A stretch of DNA of 45,511 nt, taken from sequence record PQ433350.1. One strand, 5' to 3'. Positions within the stretch are counted from its first letter, which is position 1; every line of letters starts with the position of its first letter. The notes beneath the pieces were generated by a model. The model ran no database searches, was not told the DNA's origin, and was given only the letters and a program-made list of their open reading frames with translations. The translations under genes were made by a program, and so were the position numbers. This document shows positions 4,768-44,954 of the stretch, one piece after another. The DNA is from Escherichia phage vB_Ec-G8.

Positions 4768-4787
4768 TTTAGCAATTAGTGCTATTT
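4768..4787 (-). promoter_or_regulatory. Boundary element copy (AATAGCAC-N5-TGCTAAA core), precedes cor
   Basis: Minus-oriented core; Rha TAG stop inside; leader ...CCACATCGAAACGAAACGAA then cor ATG. Confidence 0.6.
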
Positions 4788-5429
4788 CTTTTCGAGTAAC
4801 ATCTTGATGTCAATGCCGAGATTATTTTCAATCAATCCAGTCAGTGCATCCGTCTTTTCTTTAAGGGCAAAACACTGAGCTTCATACTTAAATCTTTCCT
4901 CCATCTCGTCAGAGCGACTAACCCAGCACTGGCGAGCCTCGCAAGCCAGTATGTCGAGTTTTTCATCGGTATTCTTATCCATGAGTAAGATCTCATTTAT
5001 TCTTTGCTCTGCAACAATGCGCTGACTAAGGTGTGCATTTTGCGCATTAGCCACACCAAGCATCATTCGCACTTCTTTTAACTCATCAATGCTTACCATC
5101 TGACTGATTACTTCTGCTTGTTTTTTAACTAACGCCTCAAGCTCATGAAGTCTTTTAACTACCGCGTATCGAAGTGCGGGGCTGTAACCCATAACCAATG
5201 TTTCAGTTAAATCGCGGTTAAGAAGAACTTCAGAAACAAAGCCGCGATAGTCTATAAGTGCTTGATAATCCTCATGACCCAAATTTGGGTTATGCCCCGA
5301 CGCTAGGATGTCGATTATCATATCCTCACAGTCACGAATAACGTGACCATGTCTTTTCCCAGTTAATTCCGCAATTTCTTTCGTGCTCATCATGGTTTTC
5401 GGCTGTTCTTTGTACAATTTAATCTTCAT
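4782..5429 (-). CDS. Rha-family phage regulatory protein (antirepressor-like)
   Basis: Rha-type N-terminal block (MSTKEIAELTGKRHGHVIRDCEDMI); ORF track begins at 5534 but a purine-rich SD precedes the in-frame ATGs at 5435/5429; start ambiguous; TAG stop lies inside a boundary element. Confidence 0.7.
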   Translation of the reverse strand: MKIKLYKEQPKTMMSTKEIAELTGKRHGHVIRDCEDMIIDILASGHNPNLGHEDYQALIDYRGFVSEVLLNRDLTETLVMGYSPALRYAVVKRLHELEALVKKQAEVISQMVSIDELKEVRMMLGVANAQNAHLSQRIVAEQRINEILLMDKNTDEKLDILACEARQCWVSRSDEMEERFKYEAQCFALKEKTDALTGLIENNLGIDIKMLLEKK

Positions 5430-5526
5430 TTTCATCTCTCTTTGGTTTTGTGATACGAAATTTTCGTAGCGCAAGCGGCACCATTTCCGCCATGCGCCTA
5501 AATATACGTAAAGATAGTCAGTTGTC

Positions 5527-5545
5527 TTTAGCAAATCGTGCTATT
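5527..5545 (-). promoter_or_regulatory. Boundary element copy, upstream of Rha-like gene
   Basis: Minus-oriented core AATAGCACGATTTGCTAAAG. Confidence 0.55.
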
Positions 5546-5626
5546 CATCGCCAATTTCACCATAAGTCACGGTTACACGTAACCGATGTAACTCGATGTA
5601 TACAATCTCATCCGCGGAAAATGATA

Positions 5627-5895
5627 TACGCGATGTTACGCCAATTTACGCATTTGTTACATTAAAATATCTATATATATCAACCTTTTACTCTTATTAT
5701 TATTATTATATATATTACTGTGTATATCATGTAACTACTTCTATAGAGTGTTCCGGTTATAATTTTAATATCATGTGGATTTATACAGTATTGCGCGGCA
5801 GCTATACCAATGCACCATCAGCAATAAATGATATACACGATATACACACTGGTTACATTGAGCTATAGCTGGGCTGGAACACCATTTTACGTAAC
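5627..5895. repeat. Divergent control region A (homologous to 24666-24990)
   Basis: Colinear shared blocks 5646-5685, 5694-5733 (TTA microsatellite + GTGTATATCATGTA), 5863-5877 (CTATAGCTGGGCTGG); palindrome CGGTTACACGTAACCG at 5569-5584. Confidence 0.7.
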
Positions 5896-6031
5896 GAGTG
5901 CCAATGCCTACACGGAATTACAGAGATTCACACGTAAATTCAAATCAACGATTGGCTAAACCAATTGGACTGGATACTTCGCTGAATATATAGTTAACCC
6001 ATCGAAAGCAAACAACCAGAGAGATAGAGAA

Positions 6032-7196: not shown

Positions 7197-7661
7197 ATGA
7201 ATAAAGATTGCTGGCAGACTCCTTTAGAGTTATTCAAACAAGTAGATGATAAATACAACTTCGAGGTTGACGTGTGCGCAAGTCCAGATAATGCTCTTTG
7301 TGAATATTTCTGGACTGAAGATGATGACTGCTTACAACAAGATTGGGGTGATGATTTCGGTTTCGTTTGGTGCAATCCTCCATATAGTAACCAACTTCCA
7401 TTTGTCGAAAAGTGCCAGCAATATGGTTATGCAGTCATGCTGTTGAATCAGGACACATCAACAAAATGGGCTAAGATAGTCTTTGAAAAGGCTTCAAAGG
7501 TTATACTCTTATCAGACAGGGTTAGGTTTATAAATCCATTAACATTGGAGGTTGGTAAGTCCAACCCCAAATGCCAGATGATCGTGATTTTCGACAAGAG
7601 AAGTAATTCTGGAGTTGATATACGTTGGTGCTCAATAAAAGAAATTCATAAGCACATATAA
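7197..7661 (+). CDS. dam: DNA N6-adenine methyltransferase (phage Dam type)
   Basis: 154 aa; motif IV NPPY (VWCNPPY) and N-terminal WQTP block typical of small phage Dam methylases. Confidence 0.85.
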   Translation: MNKDCWQTPLELFKQVDDKYNFEVDVCASPDNALCEYFWTEDDDCLQQDWGDDFGFVWCNPPYSNQLPFVEKCQQYGYAVMLLNQDTSTKWAKIVFEKASKVILLSDRVRFINPLTLEVGKSNPKCQMIVIFDKRSNSGVDIRWCSIKEIHKHI

Positions 7662-12771: not shown

Positions 12772-13245
12772 TTACTCTTTAGCTTTTCGTGCTGCTTCGT
12801 TGGCTGCCTTAATTTTGCGCCATGAGCGACACTCTGGTTTAGTTGCTAGCTCAGCCTCAGTAACAACACGCAGCATATGACGCTTCTTGCAACGTAGAGT
12901 TAGCGGTTTCCCGTTACCGTCGAATTGCAGATCTGGTCGGCAGAATGTAGCGCGAAAACCTTCTCCATTTCGCTTATAGTAGTTGTGCGACAACTGAGCG
13001 CCGCGCGCAGAAATCATCCCACGCTTAAACCATTCTTCTACAGCCTGAGGTGTCACCTTTAACTGCTTTGCGATATTTGCCTTTGTGCCGAAGAAATCAA
13101 GAACAATCTCCAGTCGCGCACGTAAACCCGCCCTTACCTCATCTTTCAAAACGTAGTAACCTGAAGGTCGTTTACGTTGCTTCTTATCTTGTGTGCGGAC
13201 GGTCCCGTTATTGCCGTTAATTGTTCGCTTGTCAACTGCATTCAT
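12772..13245 (-). CDS. Putative HTH DNA-binding protein
   Basis: Basic protein with helix-turn-helix-like segment (NIAKQLKVTPQAVEEWFKRG); start placed at ATG 13245 with GAGGT SD rather than ORF-track start 13281. Confidence 0.55.
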   Translation of the reverse strand: MNAVDKRTINGNNGTVRTQDKKQRKRPSGYYVLKDEVRAGLRARLEIVLDFFGTKANIAKQLKVTPQAVEEWFKRGMISARGAQLSHNYYKRNGEGFRATFCRPDLQFDGNGKPLTLRCKKRHMLRVVTEAELATKPECRSWRKIKAANEAARKAKE

Positions 13246-13346
13246 TTCATTACCTCGATAGCATTTTTTGTTAAAAGTCATTCTGATTTGATAGTATTAT
13301 TGTACTCAATTAAACGCTACAAGACAATTTTTATAGGAATTTAGAT

Positions 13347-15341
13347 ATGTTGCCTATCGAAAAGCTGGTTGCAAACTTCGATAAAGAAAGAATCAAGCAG
13401 ATTCAGAAAGACTATCAGTTTGGTGAGATAACCCCTTACGAGTTTCAGTGCGTGACATTTGATGCAATCGGAAAGGCTATTGGGAAGTACGAAGCACCAT
13501 TTATCGCAGACCTTTCCGTATCGGCTGGTAAGACAATCATCCTGGCTATGATTGGAAAGCGTATGGAGCAGCTTGGTCTTCCTTATATGGTTCTATCTCG
13601 ACAGTCAGAGATAATCAGCCAGAACTCAGAAGAGCTTCGTAATTTCGGCATCCGTAACAGCGTCTATTGCGCTGGCCTTAACGTTAAATCGGTTTACTAT
13701 CCAACCATAGTTGCCAGCGAGGGTACGGCTGCTAACGGATTGTTTAAGGGGCTTGGTGACTATGTTCCGGCAGTTATCGCTATCGATGAATGCCACATGC
13801 TTGATGCTATGGATATCGTTGAAGCCGAGGAGAACGAGGAAACTTTTGAGCAAATGAGCACAAAGAAGGGCGAAATGGTTTTCAAGGATGGCGTTAACAC
13901 TGGATTAATTGGTACAGGTCGCGCGCAGTACACGCTAATCATCACTGAGATGAAGCGTCGTTGTCGCGAAAAGTATGGGCGGGAGCTTCGTATATTCGGT
14001 CTTACTGGCAGCCCATATCGCAACAACGACCACATAGTCGTTAGTAATCCTAATATCCGTGGTTTCTGGCGCAAAACAGTTATTCAGGTACCGACCAATT
14101 ACCTGGTTGATTTGGGGTTCGTTGTACCAACAGTTTACGGTGAAGTTGGTGATTTGGGCTATGACCTTGCTGAGTTTACGCCAGATGGCAGCGATGGGGT
14201 TAAAGATTTTAGCAAAAAAGAAATGGACGCGATGCAGGAAAAAATTCATCAAAACCAGTCCATGACTCAAAAGATTATGCAGTTCGCAGCCAAGTTTATG
14301 GAAACTCGTAACGCAGCACTAGTAACTTGCTCAGGCAAGCGGCATTGCGAGGAAGCAGCCGCGGCGCTTCCTGATGGTGTAACCTGGGCTATAGTAACTG
14401 ACTCTACTGGTGAGAAAAAGCGTCGTGAGATTCTTTCTGACGCAGCTGAAGGTAAGTATAAATTCATCTTTCAGATTGGCTGCCTCACGACCGGCGTGAA
14501 CGTTCCGCCATGGGACACGTCAATAATTCTTCGCAAGGTTGGTAGCATCACGTTACTGATTCAGCTTTTGGGGCGAGGTATGCGAATTCTTAAGAATAAG
14601 CATAAGGAAATGGGAATGGTTAAGGATGATCACGTGGTGCTGGACTTCGCTGGTACTCTTGATGACATGGCGGAATTGTACTTTGACCCAATCATAGAGG
14701 AAGTGCAGGACCAGAAATTTAAGTCTTCACGCAAAGGCGGCGATGAGCCAAGAGTGTGCCCCGCATGCTCTTATGAGAATTCTCCTTTTGCCCGTCGTTG
14801 CAATAACGTAATTGATGGAAAGCGTTGCGAACATTTTTTTACATTTCGCTTGTGTGAAGACATAGAGGACCCGCAGACAAAGGTTATTATTAAGAAAGGT
14901 TGTGGCGAGAAGAATGACATTGCTGCTAAAAACTGTCGGTGCTGTGGCGAGATGCTAATAGACCCGAATGCAAAGTTATCTGGGAAAATGTATCGTAAAG
15001 GCGACTGGTTGAGAGTCTACGACTTTAAGATTGGATTAACAAAGAATCAATCAGGGATTGTTGCCTCATACGAGGTCATGGCTCATAGTGGGGATAGGTT
15101 CCGGGCCTATGAGACGTTTTTTCCAGAGTCAGACCATCGCGTTTGCTCTGTAAAATGGAAAGCATTTTGCTCGAGTCACATAGAGAACAGGACTGAGGCT
15201 TTTAGAATTGGCAGATTGCGTAATGCTAAGATGATTATGACTAATGCTCACCTTTTCCGTGCGCCATTAAGGATTACACACCGTAAGAACCAGAAGTCTC
15301 AAGATATTATCGCAAACAAATCATTTACTATGGAAGACTGA
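13347..15341 (+). CDS. SF2 DNA helicase (DEAD/DEAH-like) with C-terminal zinc ribbons
   Basis: 664 aa; Walker A (SAGKT), Walker B (DECH); C-terminal CxxC clusters. Confidence 0.8.
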   Translation: MLPIEKLVANFDKERIKQIQKDYQFGEITPYEFQCVTFDAIGKAIGKYEAPFIADLSVSAGKTIILAMIGKRMEQLGLPYMVLSRQSEIISQNSEELRNFGIRNSVYCAGLNVKSVYYPTIVASEGTAANGLFKGLGDYVPAVIAIDECHMLDAMDIVEAEENEETFEQMSTKKGEMVFKDGVNTGLIGTGRAQYTLIITEMKRRCREKYGRELRIFGLTGSPYRNNDHIVVSNPNIRGFWRKTVIQVPTNYLVDLGFVVPTVYGEVGDLGYDLAEFTPDGSDGVKDFSKKEMDAMQEKIHQNQSMTQKIMQFAAKFMETRNAALVTCSGKRHCEEAAAALPDGVTWAIVTDSTGEKKRREILSDAAEGKYKFIFQIGCLTTGVNVPPWDTSIILRKVGSITLLIQLLGRGMRILKNKHKEMGMVKDDHVVLDFAGTLDDMAELYFDPIIEEVQDQKFKSSRKGGDEPRVCPACSYENSPFARRCNNVIDGKRCEHFFTFRLCEDIEDPQTKVIIKKGCGEKNDIAAKNCRCCGEMLIDPNAKLSGKMYRKGDWLRVYDFKIGLTKNQSGIVASYEVMAHSGDRFRAYETFFPESDHRVCSVKWKAFCSSHIENRTEAFRIGRLRNAKMIMTNAHLFRAPLRITHRKNQKSQDIIANKSFTMED

Positions 15342-15342
15342 C

Positions 15343-15762
15343 ATGCAAATTACAGACAAAGAAGATTACATTGAGTTTTACCCAGGCCCGGTTAAGTCAT
15401 GCCCGAAAGAGGATGACGAACAAATCTTTTGCTCTGATTGGGTTAAGTATAACTACCCGGAGATGGTATTTTTCCACTGCGTAAATGAGGGCAAGAAAAC
15501 CATTGGTCAAGCAAGAAAAGATCAGGCGAAGGGGTTGCTTAAGGGCGTATCAGACTGCTTATTCCTGATACCTGAATCGCTGCGAGGGAAATATCCTTTC
15601 GGGGCTATAGAGCTAAAGAGGGCTGGTAAAACTCAAGCAAGTCCAGTCAGCGAAGAACAGAAAGCATTTCTGAAAAGTGTAATGGAATCAGGCGGTTTCT
15701 CGGCAGTCGCCTACGGACGTGAGGGTTTTCTTGCAGCATTCAAAGAAATGATTTCAAAATAG
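15343..15762 (+). CDS. VRR-NUC domain nuclease
   Basis: 139 aa; PD-(D/E)xK-type motif (SDCLFLIP...GAIELKR); start overlaps the helicase stop; TAG stop inside a boundary element. Confidence 0.7.
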   Translation: MQITDKEDYIEFYPGPVKSCPKEDDEQIFCSDWVKYNYPEMVFFHCVNEGKKTIGQARKDQAKGLLKGVSDCLFLIPESLRGKYPFGAIELKRAGKTQASPVSEEQKAFLKSVMESGGFSAVAYGREGFLAAFKEMISK

Positions 15763-20902: not shown

Positions 20903-22486
20903 TCACCCCAGCAGTCGCGGATTAATGTAAACTTTATCACCAATCAGGCACGTATAGTTTTTCTCATCAAGCATTGGCAGTAAGTGATCTTTAATCTTCG
21001 TCATCACTCCAGCCTGAGCCTCGAACGGCTTAACCTTGCGAGCAGCTTCATACAATGAGCGAATACCAACTACGCCCTTACCGTTTTTGCCTTGCTTGAT
21101 CAGAATATCAATCAGCTTATTCATCTCGGCATTGTCGCCAGCGTGACCAGCTGCGTTAGCAGATGACAAATAAGTCTTGCTCAGTTCCTGAAACATAATA
21201 ACAGCTTCTTGCATCGTATCTAGCTCGATCTCTCTAGACTTACGCGGACTCCCGCCATTTGGGTTAAACCAGTTACGCACGGTATGAAGAACCGCCGCAA
21301 TTCGGATGGCCTGCTTGTCGAATTTACCCAGGGCGCCGCGCAACATTGTGTGTGAATACTTACCGCCGTCAGCAAGGTGAGGTTCCATTTCCTGACGCGC
21401 GCGGTTGAGATACTTCATTGCTGAGTTGCTCACTGTCAACTTAACATCCTGCTCATTCATTATTTCGTGAACAAGTCGGAAGTAATCAGCCTTCAATGCG
21501 CCATCAATTGGCTCGTAAGTTGAATCTCCATTTTCATCAACGAATACACGTTCGCCAAGGAATGACTTCTCGCGGACCAAAAGGAAGCGCTCAGATACAC
21601 CGATACCACGCGCACCAGCGTTCATAATAGCGTTGATTGTCTCATCCTGCGCAATTACGGAGATACAGCCCATGGCAACGAAGCTCATGTTGTTTTCTGC
21701 ATTAGCACGCGCGATAGATACGTTACCAGCATCCCATGCTTTAAGCACAAGCTCGCTGTTCGTTTTCTTTGAGCCGTCACCATAGGTCATACCAAGCAGT
21801 GAGTTTACGCTAGTCGCCTCATCAGAGATCACTGCGAAATTACCCTGGCGATTGTTTATTCGCGCAAGACCCTCAGGTGTTGTATCTGATACCGGGAATA
21901 CGATATCACATAGTTTCTCCAGTTTTTCCTCCAGCTCTTCTTTTTCCTCAAAAAGAGAGGCCATCTCTGACGGAGATTTTTCCTGCTTCATCTCTTTTGA
22001 TAACGCAGATAGTTTGGCCATAATCTTTTTGCGCTCACGCTTTCTAACTTCATTCAGCCGCTCAGTCTCAGCGATCATTGGAGAAATCGAAAGTGAGTTG
22101 ATTGCTGATTTACCAGTCGAAGGAGGCTGGCTAGTCACGACGTAAAGAGATGTTGGCTGCTGAGTCCCGTGATACTCGACAGTGAATCGGCCCAGCATAG
22201 CAGCGGAAATACACCCAAGGAAGTGCATGTATGCTGAAGACTCTGGGAACTGAACAGAGCGGGCAATATTTGCTGACAGCTTACCAACAACATCAATGTC
22301 ATTACCTAGTGAGATTACAGGGTATTTATCATTAGCCGCATCAATCTCGACCGGAGCCTTCCAGAATGATTGAGACTGGCGATAGCCATTGGCATTAATG
22401 GCGACTCGCAGTGGCGGGAGGTTGTCAGCAGCAGCAATTGCCATAACCTGTTCAACAGATAGTTTATCTTCGTTGAAATCAAACAT
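20903..22486 (-). CDS. P-loop NTPase (Walker A/B), replication-associated ATPase-like
   Basis: 527 aa; Walker A (QPPSTGKS), Walker B (FAVISDEA); GGAGAG RBS; upstream element variant with TGaTATAAT extended -10. Confidence 0.7.
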   Translation of the reverse strand: MFDFNEDKLSVEQVMAIAAADNLPPLRVAINANGYRQSQSFWKAPVEIDAANDKYPVISLGNDIDVVGKLSANIARSVQFPESSAYMHFLGCISAAMLGRFTVEYHGTQQPTSLYVVTSQPPSTGKSAINSLSISPMIAETERLNEVRKRERKKIMAKLSALSKEMKQEKSPSEMASLFEEKEELEEKLEKLCDIVFPVSDTTPEGLARINNRQGNFAVISDEATSVNSLLGMTYGDGSKKTNSELVLKAWDAGNVSIARANAENNMSFVAMGCISVIAQDETINAIMNAGARGIGVSERFLLVREKSFLGERVFVDENGDSTYEPIDGALKADYFRLVHEIMNEQDVKLTVSNSAMKYLNRARQEMEPHLADGGKYSHTMLRGALGKFDKQAIRIAAVLHTVRNWFNPNGGSPRKSREIELDTMQEAVIMFQELSKTYLSSANAAGHAGDNAEMNKLIDILIKQGKNGKGVVGIRSLYEAARKVKPFEAQAGVMTKIKDHLLPMLDEKNYTCLIGDKVYINPRLLG

Positions 22487-24255: not shown

Positions 24256-24459
24256 CTCTTCAACGTACTCGCTACAACTCGGGATTTTACTCCCGGCCCG
24301 GCATCCTAACAAAAGGACCCGCTCGGCGCTTTGGTGGGTGAGGTAACGCTTCCTCACATTGCGCGGTAGTATTTACCCTTTTTAGTCTCTTTCGAGAGTG
24401 ACTCAGAGTCTGCTACCGTGTCGATGAGATTAAGTATACGCATAGTTATCCACACTGTC

Positions 24460-24478
24460 TTTAGCAAAAAGTGCTATT
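24460..24478 (-). promoter_or_regulatory. Boundary element copy at the leftward edge of control region B
   Basis: Minus-strand AATAGCACTTTTTGCTAAAG. Confidence 0.55.
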
Positions 24479-24492
24479 CGTTAGATTTATGT

Positions 24493-24577
24493 ATTGTTGC
24501 AGATATTGCAATGATTCACATGATTATTGCACATATAGCAATATTGTTTCAGATGCAATGATGTTTTTGATTGTTGC
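24493..24577. repeat. Iteron-like cluster of TTGCA-core repeats
   Basis: ATTGTTGC at both ends (24494, 24570), TGCAATGAT twice (24507, 24554), further ATTGCA/AGCAAT units at about 10-11 bp spacing. Confidence 0.5.
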
Positions 24578-24665
24578 GAAAAGTGAAATGAAGTGGTGAG
24601 TGAGTGAATGAAAGATGGATGGGCTACCATACAAGTTGATTTTGATTCTGGCTGAGCCATTTTTG

Positions 24666-24990
24666 CGTATACGCGTTATAAAAGTTATGCCTTGTAGATG
24701 ATGCCACCCTCCGTAGGAATCGTGTACGCCTATAACGCTGAATTACGCAATGGTTACACTATAATATCTATACATAACAACCATTTAGTAGTATTATTAT
24801 TATTATATATATTACTATGTATATCATGTATATCCCCCTTGCGGGGAGGGTCGATAGTTTTTCTATGAAAATGACATTTTCTATATATATAAGGATAGGT
24901 ATATACCCTCCGCGTTTTCCGCGGAAATTAATCTACAGGCAAATTACATGCACTATAGCTGGGCTGAGGTGGCAAAAAACGTAACCAGGG
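24666..24990. repeat. Divergent control region B (homologous to 5627-5895)
   Basis: Shared blocks 24743-24782, 24794-24830, 24953-24966; extra hairpins (CCCC-ttgc-GGGG; CCGCG-ttttc-CGCGG). Confidence 0.7.
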
Positions 24991-25082
24991 CCAATATAAA
25001 CACGAAATAACACTTGATAACGTGTATATGTGTGTTATTATGGATTCATCTTAACGAAGGGCAACCAATCAGGAGTAATGAA

Positions 25083-28845: not shown

Positions 28846-28923
28846 GCTCTGCTAGCTCAACGGGAAAGAAGCAACGACCTTCTAAGTCGTAGGTTACTGG
28901 TTCGAATCCAGTGCGGAGCGCCA
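28846..28923 (+). tRNA. tRNA-Arg (anticodon UCU)
   Basis: Cloverleaf folded by hand: 7-bp acceptor stem (GCTCTGC/GCGGAGC with one G-U), anticodon stem ACGAC/GTCGT, loop CTTCTAA (anticodon TCT at 28881-28883), T-arm ACTGG-TTCGAAT-CCAGT, discriminator G and encoded CCA. Confidence 0.85.
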
Positions 28924-29841: not shown

Positions 29842-31407
29842 ATGTCTTTAGTATGGGAAGAAATGACCATTCAGGAAAAGATGGCTGTTAAGGCGATATC
29901 AGAACACAGCTTCGAGGGTTTCCTTCGTTGCTGGTTCCAGATTACACAAGGCGAACGATACATCCCTAACTGGCATCACAAGTACTTGTGCAGAATCATT
30001 GACGAGATTATTGCAGGCGAAAGAAAGGACACCATTATCAACATAGCACCAGGCAGCGGAAAGACGGAAATTGCCTCAATCCACTTCCCGGCCTATTCGA
30101 TGGTTAAGCTTAGGAAGGTGCGCAACCTTAACATCTCTTTTGCTGACTCCCTGGTTAAGCGTAACTCGAAGCGAGTGCGTGACCTTATCAAGTCTCAAGA
30201 ATTTCAGTCACTCTGGCCATGCAAGTTTGGCACTTGCAAAGACGATGAGCTTCAGGTTCTTGATGAGAGTGGCAAGGTTAGATTTGAGTCAATATCAAAG
30301 GCGGCTGGAGGCCAGATTACTGGCGCTCGCGGTGGGTACATAACCGAAACATACAGCGGAGCCGTTCTTTTGGATGACTTTGACAAACCCGCAGATATGT
30401 TATCAGCAGTGTACCGCTCGAATAATCACGTAATGCTTAAAAATACGATTCGCTCACGTCGAGCCAGTTCTGTAAAAGGCAAAGCGACACCAATCATTTC
30501 GATACAGCAGCGGCTTCACGTCAATGACTCAACCTGGTTCATGATGGAGGGGGGTATGGGTATCGACTTTGACTTGGTTAAGATACCGGCTCTGGTTACT
30601 GAGGATTACATCGACTCGCTCCCTGACTGGATTAAAGATCAGTTTGCTGAGGACGTACTAAGCAGCGAATATATTGAGCGAGATGGCGTAAAGTACTACA
30701 GCTACTTTCCTAAAAAGGAATCCGTAAACGACCTGGTGGCAATGTGGGATAGCGACCCCTACACTTTCCTCAGCCAGTATCAGCAGGAGCCAGTAGCGCT
30801 GGGTGGCAACCTAATTAACGTGGACTGGTTCCAGCGAATCAGTGATACGTTCAGACCTCCAGCTAAGTACGACTATCGATTCATAACTTGCGATACCGCA
30901 ATGACCACTAAAAGTTACAGCGACTTCTCTGTTCTTCAGTTGTGGGGCTATAAAGATGCTAAGATTTACCTTATTGATCAGCGCAGGGGTAAATGGGAGG
31001 CCCCAGAGTTGGAGGCTGAACTGCTGGACTTCGAGAAGAAATCAAGGGCAACCAGTCAGTCAGATGGTATCCTCAGAAAGATTATTATCGAGAAGAAAGC
31101 GTCTGGTATCGGCCTGATTCAATCAGCTGGCAGGGTTATGCGAACACCGATAGAGCCATACGTACCGGATAATGACAAGCTAACCAGGGTGATGAGTGCA
31201 CTACCACAGATTAAGGCTGGTAACGTAGTTCTTCCAGAGTCATCGCCGTGGCTAAACGGATTGCTCACTGAGGTTGCGGCTTTTACGGCAGATGACTCGC
31301 ATAAGCACGACGACCAAATTGACTGTCTAACAATGGCGGTAAACCTTGTGCTTAACATCGCGGATGATCCTAAGGCGAGACTGATGCGCATAGCGGGAAT
31401 GAAATAG
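29842..31407 (+). CDS. Terminase large subunit
   Basis: 521 aa; N-terminal ATPase with Walker A (APGSGKT), C-terminal nuclease-like acidic residues; TAG stop inside an element. Confidence 0.9.
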   Translation: MSLVWEEMTIQEKMAVKAISEHSFEGFLRCWFQITQGERYIPNWHHKYLCRIIDEIIAGERKDTIINIAPGSGKTEIASIHFPAYSMVKLRKVRNLNISFADSLVKRNSKRVRDLIKSQEFQSLWPCKFGTCKDDELQVLDESGKVRFESISKAAGGQITGARGGYITETYSGAVLLDDFDKPADMLSAVYRSNNHVMLKNTIRSRRASSVKGKATPIISIQQRLHVNDSTWFMMEGGMGIDFDLVKIPALVTEDYIDSLPDWIKDQFAEDVLSSEYIERDGVKYYSYFPKKESVNDLVAMWDSDPYTFLSQYQQEPVALGGNLINVDWFQRISDTFRPPAKYDYRFITCDTAMTTKSYSDFSVLQLWGYKDAKIYLIDQRRGKWEAPELEAELLDFEKKSRATSQSDGILRKIIIEKKASGIGLIQSAGRVMRTPIEPYVPDNDKLTRVMSALPQIKAGNVVLPESSPWLNGLLTEVAAFTADDSHKHDDQIDCLTMAVNLVLNIADDPKARLMRIAGMK

Positions 31408-31421
31408 CACAAATTGCTAAA
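31404..31421 (+). promoter_or_regulatory. Boundary element copy inside late operon, precedes moron 31477
   Basis: ATAGCACAAATTGCTAAA, GCCA-cgga-TGGC, TATAGT, TTCACACAAAAGAGAGGAG. Confidence 0.65.
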
Positions 31422-31476
31422 CACTAAAGCCACGGATGGCGTATAGTTACTTCACACAAAAGAGAGGAGAAGAAAG

Positions 31477-31809
31477 ATGAAGGCAGTATTTAAAGGTTAT
31501 AAAAAAGCTGGTCGTTTGGAATTTACTATTGGTAAGATTTATGAGTTATCAGAAACACGCGGAGTGGGTGGATATATGGGGGTGACTGATGACGGTGGCT
31601 TTCGGGCAATATTTATCCCAGACAACATCTATGATTTCGAGGTGTTGATCCCAGATGAATTTATCGGTAAAGAAAGGCAATTCAAATATTACATCAATGG
31701 CGAAGCTGTTTCTAAAGTCAAGTTCGATGATACACTGTTATGCGTCAAGGAATTTAAATCTGATGGCATTGATACATCATCAATCAAGTTCGAAGTAAAA
31801 TTCGAGTAA
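31477..31809 (+). CDS. Hypothetical moron protein (110 aa), paralog of 43772-44137
   Basis: Own element + leader upstream and terminator downstream; shares GYKK N-terminal and FEV-x-FE C-terminal blocks with the 43772 ORF. Confidence 0.55.
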   Translation: MKAVFKGYKKAGRLEFTIGKIYELSETRGVGGYMGVTDDGGFRAIFIPDNIYDFEVLIPDEFIGKERQFKYYINGEAVSKVKFDDTLLCVKEFKSDGIDTSSIKFEVKFE

Positions 31810-31830
31810 CCACAAAAGCTATGATAAACT

Positions 31831-31853
31831 AGCCCCTAAATGGGGCTTTTTTA
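31831..31853 (+). terminator. Terminator-RBS module before portal
   Basis: AGCCCC-taaat-GGGGCT + T6 then ATTGGAGA RBS. Confidence 0.75.
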
Positions 31854-31865
31854 TTGGAGAAAAAC

Positions 31866-33092
31866 ATGGTCAAGACAGACAGCTACGCCAATATCTTTCT
31901 AGGCGGCAGTGATGGTAGTGAGATTTACGGGAGCTTGCAGAACCAATCGCCTACAATTCTGGCTTCGCTTTATGCGGATAATGCACTGGTGCGTCGAATT
32001 ATCGACACAATCCCGGAGACGGCATTAGCGGCAGGATTCCACATTGACGGCATTGATGACGAGCCTGCATTCTGGTCTCGCTGGGACTATCTGGAGTTGA
32101 CAAGGCACATCAACGAAGCGTGGTCGTGGGCTAGATTGTTCGGTGGAGCGGCAATTGTCGCTATCGTTAAGGACAACAGAGCTCTAACAAGCCCAGTCAG
32201 AGAAGGTTCTGAGCTTGAAACTGTTCGCGTATACGACCGCACACAAGTAAAAGTCCAAACTCGAGAGGAGAATCCGCGCAACGCACGTTTTGGTAATCCA
32301 CTAACCTATCGCATCACCACTAATGAGAGCGATATGTTTTACGATGTGCATTACAGCCGCATTCATATCATCGACGGAGAGCGAATCCCTAACGTAATGC
32401 GTCGGCAAAATGATGGCTGGGGCCGTAGCGTTCTCTCCAGTGATATTCTTGACTCAATCAAGGATTACACCAACTGCGAACGACTAGCGACTCAACTGCT
32501 CAAGCGTAAACAGCAAGCGGTCTGGAAAGTCAAGGACCTGGCATTGCTTTGTGATGATAGTGAAGGAGTTGGCGCGGCTCGTTTACGTCTCGCTCAAGTT
32601 GATAACAACAGCGGAGTTGGTCAGGCAATTGGCATTGATGCGGAATCGGAAGAATACAGCATTCTGAACTCTGATATTGGTGGGATTGATGCGTTTCTGG
32701 ATAAGAAGTTTGATAGAATCGTTGCGCTGAGCGGTATTCATGAAATCATCTTGAAGAACAAAAACGTCGGCGGCTTATCATCAAGCCAGAATACAGCGCT
32801 TGAGACATTCCATAAGCTAGTAGATCGAAAGCGTAACGCTGAACTGCTGCCGATTCTCGGGTTCCTGATTCCGTTCATTTCAGACGAGCAAGAATGGTCA
32901 GTGGAGTTTAATCCTCTGGCTCAGGAATCAAGTAAAGATAAAGCGGAGACCCTTGAGAAGAACGTAAACAGTATAGCAACACTAATTGCAGCTGGCGCTA
33001 TGGATACTAGCGAAGCGCGTGATACACTACGAACTATCGCGCCAGAGATTAAGATTGGCGATGGCAATATCGAACCTAAAGAAACAGTCTAG
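31866..33092 (+). CDS. Portal protein
   Basis: 408 aa from ATG 31866 (GGAGA SD; ORF-track start 31854 is TTG); position after terminase. Confidence 0.85.
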   Translation: MVKTDSYANIFLGGSDGSEIYGSLQNQSPTILASLYADNALVRRIIDTIPETALAAGFHIDGIDDEPAFWSRWDYLELTRHINEAWSWARLFGGAAIVAIVKDNRALTSPVREGSELETVRVYDRTQVKVQTREENPRNARFGNPLTYRITTNESDMFYDVHYSRIHIIDGERIPNVMRRQNDGWGRSVLSSDILDSIKDYTNCERLATQLLKRKQQAVWKVKDLALLCDDSEGVGAARLRLAQVDNNSGVGQAIGIDAESEEYSILNSDIGGIDAFLDKKFDRIVALSGIHEIILKNKNVGGLSSSQNTALETFHKLVDRKRNAELLPILGFLIPFISDEQEWSVEFNPLAQESSKDKAETLEKNVNSIATLIAAGAMDTSEARDTLRTIAPEIKIGDGNIEPKETV

Positions 33093-36615: not shown

Positions 36616-36983
36616 ACTACAACGAAATCGAATCAATTACTCGCGCTGGCATTAACTTCTTTAGTGATGCCAATGGCTTTTACGAGATGAGCACGGGTGC
36701 TGGATATGTTGAAATCGTTAACGGCGTTGAAGTAGATGTTCCTTCGCAGACATTCCAGCTAAAAGGCTTGGTGCGAGAAATCAAGACGCGCGATATCGAT
36801 GGTGAGTTTATCCAGTTTGGCGATAAGCGCGGAATCTTCACAGCACAGGCGGAAATTAAGCAGGGTTATCAGATTAAAGTTGATGGCGAGACTTTCGTTG
36901 TTGTTGACCCTCGGCCTGTAAAACCAACCGGCACAGTTGTTGGTTATAGACCGATTCTTCGTAGGGTGGCTACTTATGGCTAG
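36612..36983 (+). CDS. Head-tail joining protein (putative)
   Basis: ATGA-coupled to the upstream gene. Confidence 0.5.
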   Translation: MNYNEIESITRAGINFFSDANGFYEMSTGAGYVEIVNGVEVDVPSQTFQLKGLVREIKTRDIDGEFIQFGDKRGIFTAQAEIKQGYQIKVDGETFVVVDPRPVKPTGTVVGYRPILRRVATYG

Positions 36984-37819: not shown

Positions 37820-38476
37820 ATGGCCCATCTCAGCAATGGCACGCAGGTCTTCGTAGAAGGCTCTCGCGGAGCTGCAATTGACGTAACAGCAATTTCTAAC
37901 GCAGTTACCCCTGTTTTAACTGTATCTGACGCATCAGGCTTGGTTGTTGGTGATTACCTGCTTTTCACCTTCTCTGCTTCGACGCTTCTGGCTGACAAGC
38001 AGGTTCGCGTAACTGCAATCTCTGGCACGTCAGTAACTGTTGAAGGTATTGATACCTCCAGCACTACCAAGTTCCCAGCTGGTTTAACTGGTGAAGTTGT
38101 TAAGATCACTTCATGGTTCGAAGTTCCGTGCGTTCAGGACGTATCCACTGATGGCGGCGAGCAGCAGTTCGTTAACTTCCAGTGTCTTTCTGATGACCGT
38201 GAACAGCAGATTCCGACTTATAAATCTGCCGTAACAAACACCTTTACATTTGCTCATGAGTACACTAACCCGGTTTATCCGGTTCTTCGCAACTACGATG
38301 AGTCGGGTCAGGTTGTTGCGATTCGACTGTTCGTACCTCGCGCTAGCGAAATGCGTTTGCAGTCTGGTACTATCGCTTTCAACGACACCCCTACCATTGG
38401 TGTTAACGAAATCGAAACGGTATCCATCGCGGTATCAATCCGCGGTCGACTGTCTTCGGTGGCGGCTGAAGTTTAA
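37820..38476 (+). CDS. Major tail protein
   Basis: 218 aa; position between connector genes and chaperones/tape measure; followed by terminator. Confidence 0.75.
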   Translation: MAHLSNGTQVFVEGSRGAAIDVTAISNAVTPVLTVSDASGLVVGDYLLFTFSASTLLADKQVRVTAISGTSVTVEGIDTSSTTKFPAGLTGEVVKITSWFEVPCVQDVSTDGGEQQFVNFQCLSDDREQQIPTYKSAVTNTFTFAHEYTNPVYPVLRNYDESGQVVAIRLFVPRASEMRLQSGTIAFNDTPTIGVNEIETVSIAVSIRGRLSSVAAEV

Positions 38477-39544: not shown

Positions 39545-42523
39545 ATGGCAACAAATGAATTAGCCGGAATCACACTAGCCGTAGACGTCTCGCAGGTAGA
39601 CAGGGGAACGCAATCCCTACAAAAGTTCAGACAGGCCAACCAACAGGCTGCATCTGGGATTAGTGAGTTCGTCAATGCTGAGCAGGTTGCTAAAAACCAG
39701 GCTAGAGATACCGCTCGCGCACTTGCTGAGCAACAGGCATCTTTAGCTAAATTGCAAACAGCTATTGACCCAACTGCGGCAAAATTCCGCAAGCTGCAGG
39801 AGGCTGCTGTAGGTCTTGATAAGGCGTTCGCTGCTGGAGTGGTTCCCGATGAGGAGTTTTTCCGCTTAGGCGAGGCACTTGAAACGCAGAATGCAAAACT
39901 TGCTCGTTCACGTGCGGCGCTAACTGAAGAGGGTAGAGCAGCTGCTCAGGCTGCAAAAGATAAAGCAAAGGCAAAGGCTGAAGCTGACAGGTTCATTGCT
40001 TCACTTGAGCGCCAGGCTCAAGCGGCAACATTGACGCGCGAGGAGTACTTAAAGTTACAGGCTGCTCAGCTTGGTGTAAGTTCCCAGGCAGCACCCATCA
40101 TTGACAGAATCGCCGATGCATCACAGAAGGCAAACACCCAGCTAATTGCTCAGAGCAAGGCTTTTCAGCGCTCTGGCTTAAGCGCAGGTCAATACAAGAA
40201 TGCCATATCTCAACTACCAGCGCAGATTACTGATATTGGCACGTCGCTTGCTGGAGGCATTCCGATTTGGCTTATTGCAATTCAGCAGGGTGGGCAGATC
40301 AAGGATGCATTTGGCGGTATTGGTAACACCTTTAGATTCGCGCTTGAAGCCTTAAACCCATTTAATGTAGCTGTTGGTGTTTTGGGTGGGGCGCTTGTAG
40401 CTCTTGGTGTTGGTGCAGCTCAGGCTGAGAGTGAATTCAGGGCGTTAAACTCCGCGATTGTGTTCTCCAACAACTCTACAATCGCATCAATCTCGCAGGT
40501 TAGAGAGTTGGTTAGCTCTGTTTCTGATGCAACAGGTGCTACCAGAGGACTTGTGACTAGCATCGCAACAAGCCTTATTGAGCAAGGGAACCTTACGCTG
40601 ACGCAGATTGACAAGATTACTAAATCGACCGCAAGATGGGCGCAGTTGACAGGTAAGGATGCGAAGGAGATTACTGGTTACTATAACCAGATTGCAAGCG
40701 ACCCAATCCAGGGTTTAGTTGATTTGGATAAGCGCTTTAACTTCCTCACACAGGGGCAGTTGACGACAATCGAAAACCTGAGAAAGACAAAGGGAGAAGT
40801 TGAGGCCGTTACTGCTGCGATTGATATTTTCAGCAAGTCTCAGGAAGCCAACCTTAACGACATAGCTGCGCAGTTAACTCCGCTTGAGCTAGCCTGGAAT
40901 GATTTCAGAAAGTACATCTCTGATATCTGGGATGCAATTAGTCGTAGAACGGTCGGGGCGCTGAACCTATTTGTTGACGTAATCGCCGGAACGATTGAAC
41001 AGATCAGGGTATTCATTAACCAGGGTGATGTTCTGATTGGTGAATTCGTAATTAGCGCAACTCAGGCATTGCAGAACATTCCTGGTCTTGATGGCGTTGG
41101 TGATGATGTTATCAAGGGGCAGCAGAAGATTATCGATGCCGCCAAGAAGCAAAACCTTGAGCTAGAGAAGTCAATCAAGGAGCGAGATGCCAGAATCAGA
41201 GAGGGAGAGCTTGGTTACGTTACTCGCAGAGAAAATCAGAATACCAATGAGCAGTCAGGTACTGATGAGGAATTTGCAAAAAGGAAGAAGGCGCTTCAGG
41301 ATGAGCTTGATGCGATCAAGAAGAACAGGAAAGAAGAAAATAGTAGGGTTAAGGAGCAAAGAGATTTAACAATTGGTTATGAATCTGGCGTTCTGGCGCT
41401 TCAGGCTCAACTCAAGGTGCTTCAGGAAAACAGGGATATTGGCGCAGTAATAAGCAATGAGCGCAAGCAGTATCTTCAGGAGGAGGCCAAATTCAGGATT
41501 CTTGAGCAGAGACAACTTGATGGCTCAATTACCAAAGAGCAAGCAAGACTTCTCATTGAAAAGGATAAAGTTCTTGAGTTAGCCAGACAGAAGGCTGAGC
41601 TAGGTGATCAGATTGTTTTGCAGGAGCGAGCTAATAAGTTAGCTGAAGATAACCGCAAGAAGATTCTTCAGATTAACAATGAGGCAAGTAACATTGATTT
41701 GGGTGCTGGTTTATCATCTCGCGAGCAGCAGAGAGCCAAAGAGATTCAGGCTCTTCAATCCAATCAGGTTAATGCTGGTGGTTCTGTTGATGATGTTGAT
41801 TTTCAGCAATTGCTGGAAGCAAGAAAGGAATACTACAAGCAGGAGGATAATCTTAGGTCAGACTGGCAATCCGGTGTAACATCCACTCTCGCCGACTTGA
41901 CAGAGAAGTACACTGACTACAACCAGATTGCTAAGGACTTAACTGTTGCGGCATTCGATGGAATTACAGACCAGATTACAAACCTTGTAACCACTGGTGA
42001 GACCAATTTCAGGGAGTTCACCGCAAGCATCCTCAAAATGATTGCGAAGATTGCAACTCAGTTGCTTTTGGTTAAAGCTATAGAATCAACACTAACTAGT
42101 TTTGGTGGTGGTGGTGGTAACGCGTTTGGCTCGCTTGCATCTGCTATAGGTTTTGCTGGTGGCGGTTACACTGGTGATGGTGGGAAGTATCAGCCAGCAG
42201 GTACGGTTCATCGAGGTGAGTTTGTATTCACAAAAGAAGCGACAAGCCGAATTGGTGTCAAAAACCTTTATGCGCTAATGAAGGGTTACGCAAACGGCGG
42301 CGCGGTTGGTGGTCCTTCAGGATATGCAAATGGCGGCTTGGTTTCTGGTGGTTCAGATGTTAATGTTAGCGGGATTACTGTTAACGTCAATGGTGGCGTT
42401 GGTAGCGACCCAGAGCATGCCAAAGCATTGCAGAGCGGCGTCAAGGCTATCGTAGCGGAAGAAATTGCTCAGTCTTTCCAGCAGGGTGGGCGTGCCTATG
42501 CTTACCTTCGCGGATTCAACTAA
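39545..42523 (+). CDS. Tail tape measure protein
   Basis: 992 aa; coiled-coil Ala/Gln/Lys/Glu-rich; Gly-rich C-terminal region; GGAGG RBS. Confidence 0.9.
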   Translation: MATNELAGITLAVDVSQVDRGTQSLQKFRQANQQAASGISEFVNAEQVAKNQARDTARALAEQQASLAKLQTAIDPTAAKFRKLQEAAVGLDKAFAAGVVPDEEFFRLGEALETQNAKLARSRAALTEEGRAAAQAAKDKAKAKAEADRFIASLERQAQAATLTREEYLKLQAAQLGVSSQAAPIIDRIADASQKANTQLIAQSKAFQRSGLSAGQYKNAISQLPAQITDIGTSLAGGIPIWLIAIQQGGQIKDAFGGIGNTFRFALEALNPFNVAVGVLGGALVALGVGAAQAESEFRALNSAIVFSNNSTIASISQVRELVSSVSDATGATRGLVTSIATSLIEQGNLTLTQIDKITKSTARWAQLTGKDAKEITGYYNQIASDPIQGLVDLDKRFNFLTQGQLTTIENLRKTKGEVEAVTAAIDIFSKSQEANLNDIAAQLTPLELAWNDFRKYISDIWDAISRRTVGALNLFVDVIAGTIEQIRVFINQGDVLIGEFVISATQALQNIPGLDGVGDDVIKGQQKIIDAAKKQNLELEKSIKERDARIREGELGYVTRRENQNTNEQSGTDEEFAKRKKALQDELDAIKKNRKEENSRVKEQRDLTIGYESGVLALQAQLKVLQENRDIGAVISNERKQYLQEEAKFRILEQRQLDGSITKEQARLLIEKDKVLELARQKAELGDQIVLQERANKLAEDNRKKILQINNEASNIDLGAGLSSREQQRAKEIQALQSNQVNAGGSVDDVDFQQLLEARKEYYKQEDNLRSDWQSGVTSTLADLTEKYTDYNQIAKDLTVAAFDGITDQITNLVTTGETNFREFTASILKMIAKIATQLLLVKAIESTLTSFGGGGGNAFGSLASAIGFAGGGYTGDGGKYQPAGTVHRGEFVFTKEATSRIGVKNLYALMKGYANGGAVGGPSGYANGGLVSGGSDVNVSGITVNVNGGVGSDPEHAKALQSGVKAIVAEEIAQSFQQGGRAYAYLRGFN

Positions 42524-42942: not shown

Positions 42943-43698
42943 ATGTTAAGTCCAAAGTTTGAAAATCAGTTGCAAAGCCTTTTCCCTGGAGAGATTGTGA
43001 CACTAATCCAGGTTGACGGAACGTCCTTCGGGAGTCTCGTTTATTCGTTCCACAATGAGAACATCTCATACACGCCAGAAGAAATCATGCTTGCCCAGAT
43101 GAATGGAGAGCCATTGCCAGAGAAGACGATCACATTTCGTGGTGAAGAGTACGGACCTAGACCATTTGGAATCTCTGGTATCAATATGACTTCTGACGGA
43201 AAAGCCAACAAGGTTACATTAACAGTATCAAACGTAGACCAGCGCATTAGCGCATTGATTCGCACTTACAATGGATTGGTCAAGGCTAAGGTTACAATCT
43301 GGATTACCACGCGCGATAACATCAATGAAGACGGAAGTATTGCTGATGGGGACTATCGCAGATTTGTTTACTTCATTGAGCGACCAAAGCAGGTTGATTA
43401 CAAAACGGCATCATTTGAGCTAAGTAGCCCGATGGATATGGATGGTATTTATATCCCCGCTAGACTTGTTCAGTCTGTTTGTTATTTCGCTTCTCGCGGA
43501 TGGTATCGAAGTGGTAATGGTTGCGACTACGCTGGTAATCGTTACTTTGACAAGGATGATAATCCAGTAGCAGACCCTTCATTAGACTTCTGCGCAGGAA
43601 CTGTTAACAGTTGCAAGCTTAGATTTGGTGAGAATAATCAGCTTTCATTTGGCGGATGCGCAGCAGCAAGCCTTCAGGCAAAGGCGAATCAGAGTTAA
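42943..43698 (+). CDS. Minor tail protein (lambda gpL-like) with C-terminal Cys cluster
   Basis: 251 aa from ATG 42943 (GGAGA SD; ORF-track start is TTG); C-terminal Cys cluster (C-x...C-x...C-x...C) as in Fe-S-binding gpL. Confidence 0.8.
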   Translation: MLSPKFENQLQSLFPGEIVTLIQVDGTSFGSLVYSFHNENISYTPEEIMLAQMNGEPLPEKTITFRGEEYGPRPFGISGINMTSDGKANKVTLTVSNVDQRISALIRTYNGLVKAKVTIWITTRDNINEDGSIADGDYRRFVYFIERPKQVDYKTASFELSSPMDMDGIYIPARLVQSVCYFASRGWYRSGNGCDYAGNRYFDKDDNPVADPSLDFCAGTVNSCKLRFGENNQLSFGGCAAASLQAKANQS

Positions 43699-43717
43699 AT
43701 AGCACTTTTTGCTAAAG
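43699..43717 (+). promoter_or_regulatory. Boundary element copy inside tail operon, precedes moron 43772
   Basis: TAA-ATAGCACTTTTTGCTAAAG, hairpin, TATAGT, CTCACACAAACGAGAGG. Confidence 0.65.
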
Positions 43718-43771
43718 ACGAACAGCAAAGGATGGCGTATAGTTACCTCACACAAACGAGAGGATATAAAA

Positions 43772-44137
43772 ATGTTCTACATTGAATTCAACGGATACAA
43801 AAAAGACAAAGAAGAGTGCGGTGGTTTATTTTCTGTTGGTAAAACTTACGCATGTGATGTTGTTGACTCAGGTGTTTACTATCAGGTTATGGATGATGAA
43901 GGTAAAGCTGTAAAATTTAGAAGCATGTTTTATGATAATTATTACAGCTTTTCACGAGTTGAACATAATGAGGTGGAGGTCAATTTGTTAAGTGATACAA
44001 ATGATGGCAAGATGAAATATAGAATGAATGGTATTGATGTTACTAAGTCATTCTTTGATGAAAAACTGATTGAGGCTGAGGGGCTTAAATCCAAGGGTGT
44101 TTCAGTGCTTATAGATTTTGAGGTTTATTTTGAATAA
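43772..44137 (+). CDS. Hypothetical moron protein (121 aa), paralog of 31477-31809
   Basis: ATG 43772 preceded by full element + leader (CACACAAACGAGAGGATATAAAA); terminator downstream. Confidence 0.5.
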   Translation: MFYIEFNGYKKDKEECGGLFSVGKTYACDVVDSGVYYQVMDDEGKAVKFRSMFYDNYYSFSRVEHNEVEVNLLSDTNDGKMKYRMNGIDVTKSFFDEKLIEAEGLKSKGVSVLIDFEVYFE

Positions 44138-44156
44138 ACTAAATTAGTGTTAAACT

Positions 44157-44184
44157 AGGTCAATCGAAAGGTTGGCCTTTTTTA
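44157..44184 (+). terminator. Terminator-RBS module before gpK
   Basis: AGGTCAA-tcgaaagg-TTGGCCT (one G-U) + T6 then ATTGGAGA. Confidence 0.6.
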
Positions 44185-44195
44185 TTGGAGATAAA

Positions 44196-44954
44196 ATGTT
44201 AACACCAAAAGTTAAGCTGGAAATCTTCCAGCACGCAAAAGAAGTCTTCCCGCATGAGTGCTGCGGGATTGTTACGCAGAAAGGTAGGGCGCAGAAATAC
44301 CACAGAATCAAGAACGCCAGCAAAGACCCTGAAAATGAATTCATCCTTGATTCAAATGAGTATGCAGATGTTCTCTTTGAGTTGGCTCACAATGAATCTA
44401 TTGTTTACGTAGTCCACTCCCATACTGGTGATGGAGCGACAACGAGGCCTAGCCCAGCAGATATCTGTAGCTGCAATGAATGCGAGATCCCTTACGTTAT
44501 TGTAAGCATACCAGAGGGAGATATGCGGATTCTTGAACCATCAACCATGCCGCTGATTGGTCGACCATGGGGGCTTGGTAGCTTTGACTGCTGGGGTCTT
44601 GTGATGGGATTCCACAAGAAATACGGAGTAAAACTGAATGACTACCGAGTCAATTACCCGTGGTGGGAGAAAAGGTACAATGAAAATACCTATGACGACA
44701 ACTGGATTAAGGAAGGATTTGAGCTGGTAAAAACTTCAGATATTCCGATTGGATCAATGATTATGATGCAGGTGCAAAGTGATGTGACAAACCACGCCGG
44801 AATCTACATTGGAAATAACAGATTCATTCATCACCTTTATGGCAAAATGAGTTCAGTTGATATCTACTCCGATTACTGGCGAGAGCGCACTGTGCGAATC
44901 GTTCGCCATAAGGATTTACCAGAGGATGTAATTTATGACCCAGAAACTGATTGA
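44196..44954 (+). CDS. Tail assembly protein (lambda gpK-like; JAMM/MPN + NlpC/P60 domains)
   Basis: 252 aa from ATG 44196; JAMM motif (HSHTGDGATTRPSPADI), C-terminal NlpC/P60-like Cys-His region. Confidence 0.85.
   Translation: MLTPKVKLEIFQHAKEVFPHECCGIVTQKGRAQKYHRIKNASKDPENEFILDSNEYADVLFELAHNESIVYVVHSHTGDGATTRPSPADICSCNECEIPYVIVSIPEGDMRILEPSTMPLIGRPWGLGSFDCWGLVMGFHKKYGVKLNDYRVNYPWWEKRYNENTYDDNWIKEGFELVKTSDIPIGSMIMMQVQSDVTNHAGIYIGNNRFIHHLYGKMSSVDIYSDYWRERTVRIVRHKDLPEDVIYDPETD

Follow-up and report, generated by a model that had tools for sequence, protein, structure and literature searches.

The genome of Escherichia phage vB_Ec-G8 carries two homologous non-coding modules, A and B, of ~350 bp each and 19 kb apart, which are so far the strongest candidates for replication origins in the T1 family or, on another reading, for a shared early control site. 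The window, by which we mean the whole stretch of 45,511 nucleotides that was analysed, is an essentially complete 45.5-kb genome of a T1-like E. coli siphophage (Drexlerviridae, Braunvirinae). Module A (5568-5925, plus strand) is located upstream of the recE-erf-ssb operon, and module B (24664-25012, plus strand) is located directly to the right of the pac region. Judging from their sequences, A and B may be a pair of origin-type elements, each built of an unwinding core and iteron-like boxes; this is the reading we favour, at somewhat less than an even chance. No origin is known for T1-like phages, and the 2024 re-annotation of phage TLS could identify none and found only three sigma-70 promoters (PMC11447400). 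Our literature searches found no description of the duplicated regions or of a T1-family origin, an earlier mention still being possible, and no transcriptome, transcription start map or TSS study of a Drexlerviridae phage.

The match between the modules was the strongest self-match of the window in self-blastn (5574-5922 versus 24670-25012; 63% identity over 355 columns, E 3e-25), and they were aligned with MAFFT. Local alignment of the whole modules gave z=33 relative to dinucleotide shuffles. Taken singly, each part was significant, the core itself with 14.9 and the parts to its left and right with 6.7 and 11.8; four control AT-rich intergenic regions reached z<=4.4 at most in the same test. 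The original prediction had described colinear homologous intergenic regions at 5627-5895 and 24666-24990, and the alignment upholds this, the similarity going beyond what is expected of AT-rich sequence. The limits given for the regions were too narrow, as the non-coding spans extend over ~5436-6031 around A and ~24360-25082 around B; the latter takes in ORF 24487-24660, which matches no family and lies on top of the conserved pac region. Core A (5636-5733, plus strand) and core B (24733-24830, plus strand) are both 98 nt long and are identical at 83 of the 98 positions, with no gap and a constant offset of 19097. Every one of the four copies of the exact 9-mer ATGATATAC in the window is inside A or B, the only exact copies of the 14-mer CTATAGCTGGGCTG are at 5863 and 24953, and runs of at least four TTA units are found in the two cores only. 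On this sequence comparison, the duplication is real. Open reading frames at 5596-5868, 24698-24868 and 24817-24984 were considered as coding sequences and set aside, since their orthologues show 1-nt microsatellite indels and have no coding support. A structured non-coding RNA or hairpin was likewise rejected, with no Rfam family and a folding z-score of -0.08 versus shuffles; Rfam, searched at gathering and E-value thresholds, gave nothing in A and, left of B, only a match below threshold.

The two modules share one order of elements. At the left end are palindromic GTTAC or TACGCG boxes, followed by sub-repeat 1, which consists of the palindrome TCCGCGGA, AAAT, GATATAC and TTACGC-N4-TTACGC-N5-GTTACA phased at 10-11 bp. 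In A, sub-repeat 1 spans 5609-5670 (plus strand), has GTTACAT after the TTACGC repeats and was delimited from repeat families D1 and D2 and from k-mer enrichment; in core B the phased series reads TAACGC-N4-TTACGC-N5-GTTACA. A -10-like hexamer comes next, TAAAAT in A and TATAAT in B, and then an AT-only tract of ~55 nt, which contains TATCAACCTTTTA and (TTA)n(TA)3 and is followed by TGTATATCATGTA. To the right of TGTATATCATGTA there are ~100 weakly shared bases, sub-repeat 2 ending in CTATAGCTGGGCTG, and finally ACGTAAC and GCCAAT. Sub-repeat 2 of A (5816-5876, plus strand) comprises AAAT, two copies of GATATAC, GGTTACAT and the terminal 14-mer, and its counterpart in B is at 24906-24966.

The microsatellites are (TTA)5(TA)3 in core A (5694-5714, plus strand) and GTA(TTA)4(TA)3 in core B (24791-24811, plus strand). 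The blocks 5694-5733 and 24794-24830 read as originally described. The suggested difference of one TTA unit between them is instead a substitution, T5694 versus G24791 (TTA to GTA), the two microsatellites being equal in length. Length polymorphism of the repeat, which had been suggested as something to test, exists between phages, with 4-6 TTA units in copies of A and 4-7 in copies of B; the repeat is thus hypervariable from phage to phage and constant between A and B of the window. The left edge of A holds a perfect 16-bp palindrome, CGGTTACACGTAACCG, which had been reported one base too far left; it lies at 5570-5585 rather than 5569-5584, outside the interval 5627-5895, and belongs to the cluster of GTTACR boxes. 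This cluster has eight boxes between 5572 and 5895 (324 bp), compared to ~0.45 expected at the genome-wide rate, and module B has two of the 63 in the window. GATATAC and TCCGCGGA are enriched in the modules by k-mer analysis, and 10 of the 15 TATATA hexamers of the window are in the two modules. Clustered short sites thus accompany the AT-rich element in each module (GTTACR, TTACGC, GATATAC and TCCGCGGA), and the flanking boxes are numerous, present in both orientations and lineage-specific.

The closest relatives of the window are CEB_EC3a, Veterinaerplatzvirus and Rtp, at ~85-89% identity across ~60-75% of the sequence. Searches for related loci with single proteins gave only 5-7 close relatives, and whole genomes from a phage collection were therefore compared. 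Comparison with Rtp and CEB_EC3a showed that region A has on its left a leftward unit encoding a Rha-like anti-repressor, a Cor-type lipoprotein and a DUF6453 protein, and on its right the rightward recE-erf-ssb operon. Region B has on its left leftward small early genes, with the DUF3987 helicase gene last in the block, and on its right rightward small early genes that lead to the terminase and structural genes. Both regions therefore part leftward from rightward transcription units, as had been proposed. The start of the Rha-like gene is ATG 5429/5435 rather than TTG 5534, which sits upstream of the gene's own promoter. This gene (4782-5435, minus strand) is a movable insert: it is leftward of module A in the window and in CEB_EC3a, rightward and on the opposite side in Rogunavirus AHS24, and absent from Rtp. 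A third, short divergent region (13282-13346), between the gene for a Cro-like HTH protein and that for an SNF2-type helicase, is unrelated in sequence to A and B; it holds a good leftward promoter of the sigma-70 type (13327-13299, TTGTCT-17-TACAAT; 11.5 bits). The second-best self-match of the window (31397-31888 versus 43692-44217; 60% over 540 columns, E 3e-16) starts at two dispersed promoters of the kind described below and extends into the downstream genes, which may be paralogous. The window has one tRNA gene (28846-28920; Rfam, 56.6 bits), as reported for other T1-like phages.

Calculation of duplex stability singled out the same two places. Core A is the least stable 60-mer and 100-mer of the window (z 4.8-5.1), and core B is the second least stable 60-mer and 100-mer and the least stable 40-mer (z 4.2-4.8). 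The comparison covered the window and five other complete genomes, four from Braunvirinae and one Webervirus, and in all six the two cores were the two least stable 60-mers, with z of 4.5-5.8 compared to 3.6 or less for the third segment. Each module therefore has an AT-rich element of exceptionally low stability, at 40, 60 and 100 bp in the window and as 60-mers elsewhere. GC skew merely tracks the direction of transcription and is uninformative on an origin.

We found module A in 133 phage records, all of them Drexlerviridae in sequence, and a search of a plasmid collection returned no homologue of it. In a scan of IMG/VR for exact 14-mers, nearly all of the 88 matches were chance matches in unrelated contigs, and only a CEB_EC3a contig was informative. 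Both modules occur in the same two contexts in several Braunvirinae genera, in Rogunavirus AHS24, in T1 and in the Webervirus mtp31 of Klebsiella, in which RecE identity is only 45%. The presence of the blocks in related phages, which the original prediction required, extends across Drexlerviridae lineages, the pair being kept in four lineages of subfamily level. Compared with four related genomes, module A ranks in the 82nd-96th percentile of 350-bp windows for conservation, above recE and a capsid-region gene in all four comparisons and above the primase gene in three of four. Core A is 97-99% identical to its orthologues, in the top percentile. Module B is well conserved in its core and poorly conserved between phages outside it (13th-63rd percentile). 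Chance or neutral duplication is ruled out by this conservation. The record of phage JK06 (NC_007291.1, 45908-46072) ends inside module A, perhaps because the assembly broke at the A/B repeat or because the record was opened at an arbitrary place.

The sequence of the core changes with lineage: Braunvirinae and Rogunavirus have (TTA)4-7(TA)n, Webervirus has (TAA)4T(ATT)3 and T1 has a TA-rich tract, and the length is variable. The boxes change as well, and in mtp31 the flanking box is GTAAGAT, with 10 copies in A, three in B and 21 in the genome. Within each genome, A and B match one another, with z of 33 in the window, 17.7 in AHS24, 10.1 in T1 and 51.7 in mtp31. Since cores and boxes differ between lineages yet match within a genome, the two modules evolve in concert. 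What is constant across lineages is a physical property, the instability of the duplex, and not a sequence. In mtp31 (L135), the modules are at 15150-15660 and at 48050-end plus 1-130 and are mutually inverted in the record; module A is flanked there by co-oriented genes, so it is not always set between divergent units. Collectively, these comparisons support the view that A and B are true paralogues under selection and that something must recognise both.

One possibility, to which we give a modest share of the probability, is that the modules are a shared early transcription control site, at which a common regulator such as the Cro-like HTH protein binds the boxes and switches divergent early transcription. 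The AT tract would then work as an UP-like element, by curvature or by sensitivity to supercoiling, or else as a weak promoter that is bidirectional and depends on an activator. The setting is typical for this, as both modules lie between divergent units with early-type genes. In most copies, the phased TTACGC repeats are followed by the -10-like TAAAAT or TATAAT, and core promoters have been annotated by program in CEB_EC3a and in AHP24, AHP42 and AKS96. In addition, the repeat offers TATTAT every 3 nt, so that a -10-like hexamer is in register at any repeat length, and the palindromes TCCGCGGA and CGGTTACACGTAACCG resemble operators. However, the best hexamer pairs within the core scored 7-9.3 bits, which is background in a window with 272 hits of at least 7.5 bits, and the counts from the sigma-70 scan were close to the shuffle expectation and not clearly above it. 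The shared core thus has no -35/-10 pair at 16-18 bp spacing that rises above background. The weight matrix was built from approximate published frequencies and is valid for ranking only. Hexamers picked by hand in the AT-rich core gave many mutually inconsistent candidates and were discarded. Key positions of the -10-like hexamer are lost in some copies (TGAAAT in A of Msk, TATAAA in A of Rogunavirus). Palindromes are present at 5570-5585, 5611-5618 and 24918-24925, at positions outside the predicted promoters.

Good promoters for all four flanking units were found outside the shared core. A leftward promoter of a family type (5501-5546, minus strand; TAGCA-N5-TGCTA, 22 nt, -10 TATATT) abuts module A and is predicted to serve the Rha-like gene, and another, identified by repeat alignment, is on the far side of the pac region (24418-24479, minus strand). 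The promoter of the recE operon (5951-5994, plus strand; 10.3 bits) consists of the palindrome ATTGG-N5-CCAAT followed by TGGACT-17-TATAGT (5966-5994). It is kept in all A orthologues, and T1 has TTGACT-16-TATAAT at the same place. To the right of B, the rightward early promoter (25014-25041, plus strand; TTGATA-16-TATTAT with a TG extension) is the third best of the window at 12.4 bits, and every B orthologue has a canonical -35/-10 pair there despite sequence divergence. Transcription of the flanking genes can be accounted for by these promoters without the core. In its general terms, the original interpretation of a shared binding site or of paired replication or recombination sites holds up, while the early divergent promoters that it assigned to the site lie outside the near-identical block. 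A stretch of 350 bp as conserved as A, with 8-10 boxes, also exceeds the usual needs of a promoter and its operators. We nevertheless keep the control site among the credible readings, because its location is typical and most copies have the -10-like hexamer.

The leftward promoters belong to a family of ~20 dispersed intergenic repeats, which self-comparison revealed and which are always co-oriented with the downstream gene. Each repeat is ~80-100 nt long and consists of AAATAGCAC-N3-TTGCTAAA (TAGCA-N5-TGCTA), 22 nt, a -10 of TATAGT or TATAAT, the leader CCACATCGAAACGA and a ribosome-binding site. Anchors on the minus strand are at 4787, 5546, 22562, 22993, 23302 and 24479, and those on the plus strand are at 7660, 11723, 15757, 18999, 25690, 26200, 26464, 26920, 27358, 27533, 28256, 31402, 38508 and 43697. 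The palindrome is centred near -42, the geometry of a class II activator site, and the conserved Cro-like HTH protein (12772-13281) is a natural candidate for its binder. Phage TLS has a 21-nt intergenic repeat whose function is listed as an open question (PMC11447400). Those direct repeats (aaATAGCACnnnTTGnTAAAA) are of the same family as the ~20 copies found here, two of which flank the modules on the left (PMC11447400). They are separate promoter-associated palindromes outside the A/B homology. The palindrome upstream of recE (ATTGG-N5-CCAAT, 5951-5965) has the same 5-N5-5 geometry and the same position with a different sequence, which suggests that the recE operon may have a different regulator from the TAGCA-N5-TGCTA sites. 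GCCAAT half-sites are also present at 5550, 5640, 5900 and 24990.

Module B adjoins what is probably the pac site. The stretch 24480-24660 has conserved non-coding TTGCAATGAT / GATTGTTGC repeats, and ORF 24487-24660 (minus strand) on it is probably spurious, as it has no family match. In phage MSK, PhageTerm placed a single packaging terminus at position 36,862, with forward packaging (PMC8421802). By alignment, this position corresponds to 24627 of the window, the approximate packaging end, which is ~35 bp left of module B. The GenBank records of T1 and Rtp begin within the same stretch. The modules might be accessory sites of packaging or recombination. They would then load terminase or a recombinase, B being the right arm of pac and A a copy that is secondary or cryptic, or they would be hotspots that promote concatemers. 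This would agree with the start of B ~35 bp right of the mapped pac end, where the T1 and Rtp records begin (PMC8421802), with the position of A directly upstream of recE-erf-ssb, and with the end of the JK06 record inside A. We consider it improbable, however, because the sole MSK terminus falls near B and none near A (PMC8421802), the terminus is inside neither module, and the TTGCAATGAT / GATTGTTGC repeats of pac are absent from module A. Moreover, A, which is far from pac, is the better conserved and more box-rich copy.

Equally doubtful is that the modules act solely as structural or topological devices, in which case they would be supercoil sinks between divergent promoters, or sites for H-NS, IHF or Fis, with no phage protein involved. 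The extreme and conserved instability of the cores between divergent units would suit such a role, as would TATCAACCTTTTA in core A (5678-5690, plus strand), which fits the IHF core consensus WATCAANNNNTTR at every position. This match is weak evidence: the copy in B (24775-24787) has one mismatch, the five matches in the window compare with 3.4 expected and are not significant alone, and the site is not conserved, being missing from A of Rogunavirus and from Webervirus. Boxes that contain GC and are specific to a lineage, their enrichment, and the matching of A to B within each genome would be left unexplained.

We therefore return to the origin reading, which fits because the conserved feature is a property rather than a sequence, lineage-specific boxes surround a meltable tract, this arrangement is independent of the promoters, and the phage has helicase and primase gear. 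The replication genes comprise a separate primase and an SF3-type DUF3987 helicase (20903-22486, minus strand), whose C-terminal domain is a predicted winged helix. We infer binding, melting and initiation in the following order. A phage DNA-binding protein would coat the iteron-like, lineage-specific boxes on either side of the core (GTTACR, the helically phased TTACGC, GATATAC and TCCGCGGA), and the AT-only microsatellite core would serve as the DNA unwinding element of each module. The best candidate for the binder is the DUF3987 helicase, through its predicted winged-helix C-terminus, and the alternative is the Cro-like HTH protein. The (TTA)n(TA)n tract may then melt through binding and negative supercoiling, perhaps helped by transcription from TAAAAT/TATAAT at the left edge of the core. 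Next, the phage helicase and primase would load and bring in the polymerase of the host, as these phages have no polymerase gene. The main site would be module A, which is extremely conserved and has 8-10 boxes, and module B, with 2-3 boxes and adjoining pac, would be a second or auxiliary one. The Rha-like protein, which the original prediction had proposed to test for binding, is an unlikely common binder, as Rtp has both modules without a Rha gene.

Many relatives encode a stand-alone protein of ~175 aa, which consists of the N-terminal ~50 aa of the helicase and its C-terminal domain, without the ATPase. Examples are gp73 of phiEB49, gp70 of AHS24, gp21 of IME253 and a protein of Msk, and coordinates in the compared records are 533-1072 (L101), 2125-2667 (L111), 37870-38406 (L105) and 40538-41062 (L104). 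The gene for this truncated paralogue is the second gene rightward of module B and is absent from the window and from Rtp. Searches of PDB sequences with the DUF3987 helicase and the HTH protein returned nothing useful. A fuller proposal, which we regard as rather unlikely as a whole, is that A and B are the T1-family origins and co-evolve, with a selected AT-only trinucleotide microsatellite as unwinding element; that the place of B beside pac would couple initiation to the start of packaging; and that the winged-helix tail of the helicase would recognise the pair, with the truncated paralogue perhaps modulating binding.

Several observations argue against origins. Divergent early promoter regions, too, normally have AT-rich tracts and clusters of operators, and the predicted winged helix implies only that the helicase may be able to bind DNA, not where. 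Many phage origins sit within or beside a helicase or primase gene, and neither module is within or adjoins either gene. Concerted evolution could partly result from gene conversion by RecE/Erf, whatever the function of the modules. The IHF match is neither significant nor family-wide, and the modules contain no DnaA boxes (TTWTNCACA). The sole DnaA box of the window, at 24446-24454, lies outside them, within the spacer of the leftward promoter next to pac; this perfect TTATCCACA, for which 5.5 are expected by chance, is absent from Msk and Rtp and is probably fortuitous. A DnaA-dependent origin was accordingly rejected, there being no DnaA boxes in or beside the AT-rich region.

T1 is a classical T phage and a notorious contaminant of laboratories and fermentations, yet its replication origin, early promoters and regulatory logic are still unmapped. 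The modules narrow this question to two exact targets per genome of <100 bp each, which are under stronger constraint than most genes. They also give a rule for finding the counterparts in other Drexlerviridae, namely to take the two segments of lowest stability, of which one is beside pac and the other upstream of recE. With candidate binding proteins and lineage-specific boxes named, the question can be tested directly. Should the modules be origins, phage engineering could make use of them, for example in origin-dependent plasmid amplification and minimal replicons, and they would help to explain how the host replisome is recruited by a phage that lacks a polymerase of its own.

Known systems offer parallels to both main readings. 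In phage lambda, OL and OR are likewise two homologous control regions that face divergent early transcription and share the same regulators. The lambda operators overlap their promoters and have no microsatellite or unwinding-type core, whereas the core of the present modules is 130-300 bp from the predicted promoters. At oriF and oriG of T4 and at the primary origin of T7, a promoter is followed by an AT-rich unwinding element. The modules resemble these in that a -10-like hexamer, placed after factor-type boxes, abuts the AT tract, so that transcription into the tract could prime replication; the promoter score here, in contrast, is at background. The satellite phage P4 has two homologous iteron-bearing cis sites kilobases apart, ori and crr, and its alpha protein provides a primase/SF3-helicase system, with a DNA-binding winged-helix domain at the end of the helicase. 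Paired iteron sites, of which one is richer in boxes, and an SF3 helicase with a winged-helix end, predicted in our case, are common to both phages. The Bacillus phage SPP1, also a pac-type siphophage of ~44-46 kb, has two distant and non-identical origins, oriL and oriR, in which repeats lie beside an AT-rich unwinding element (PMC6316719). As with A and B, these are two separate copies of one architecture, and few islands of the genome are more AT-biased (PMC6316719). The modules have no similarity to SPP1 in sequence. That phage uses the origin-binding protein gp38 with a DnaB-type helicase and its loader, compared to an SF3-type DUF3987 helicase and a separate primase here, and its oriL is part of gene 38, whereas A and B both lie between genes. 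Origin activity has been proven for SPP1 and is proposed for the modules. SPP1 is a direct precedent for a pac siphophage of this size that has two origins of similar build.
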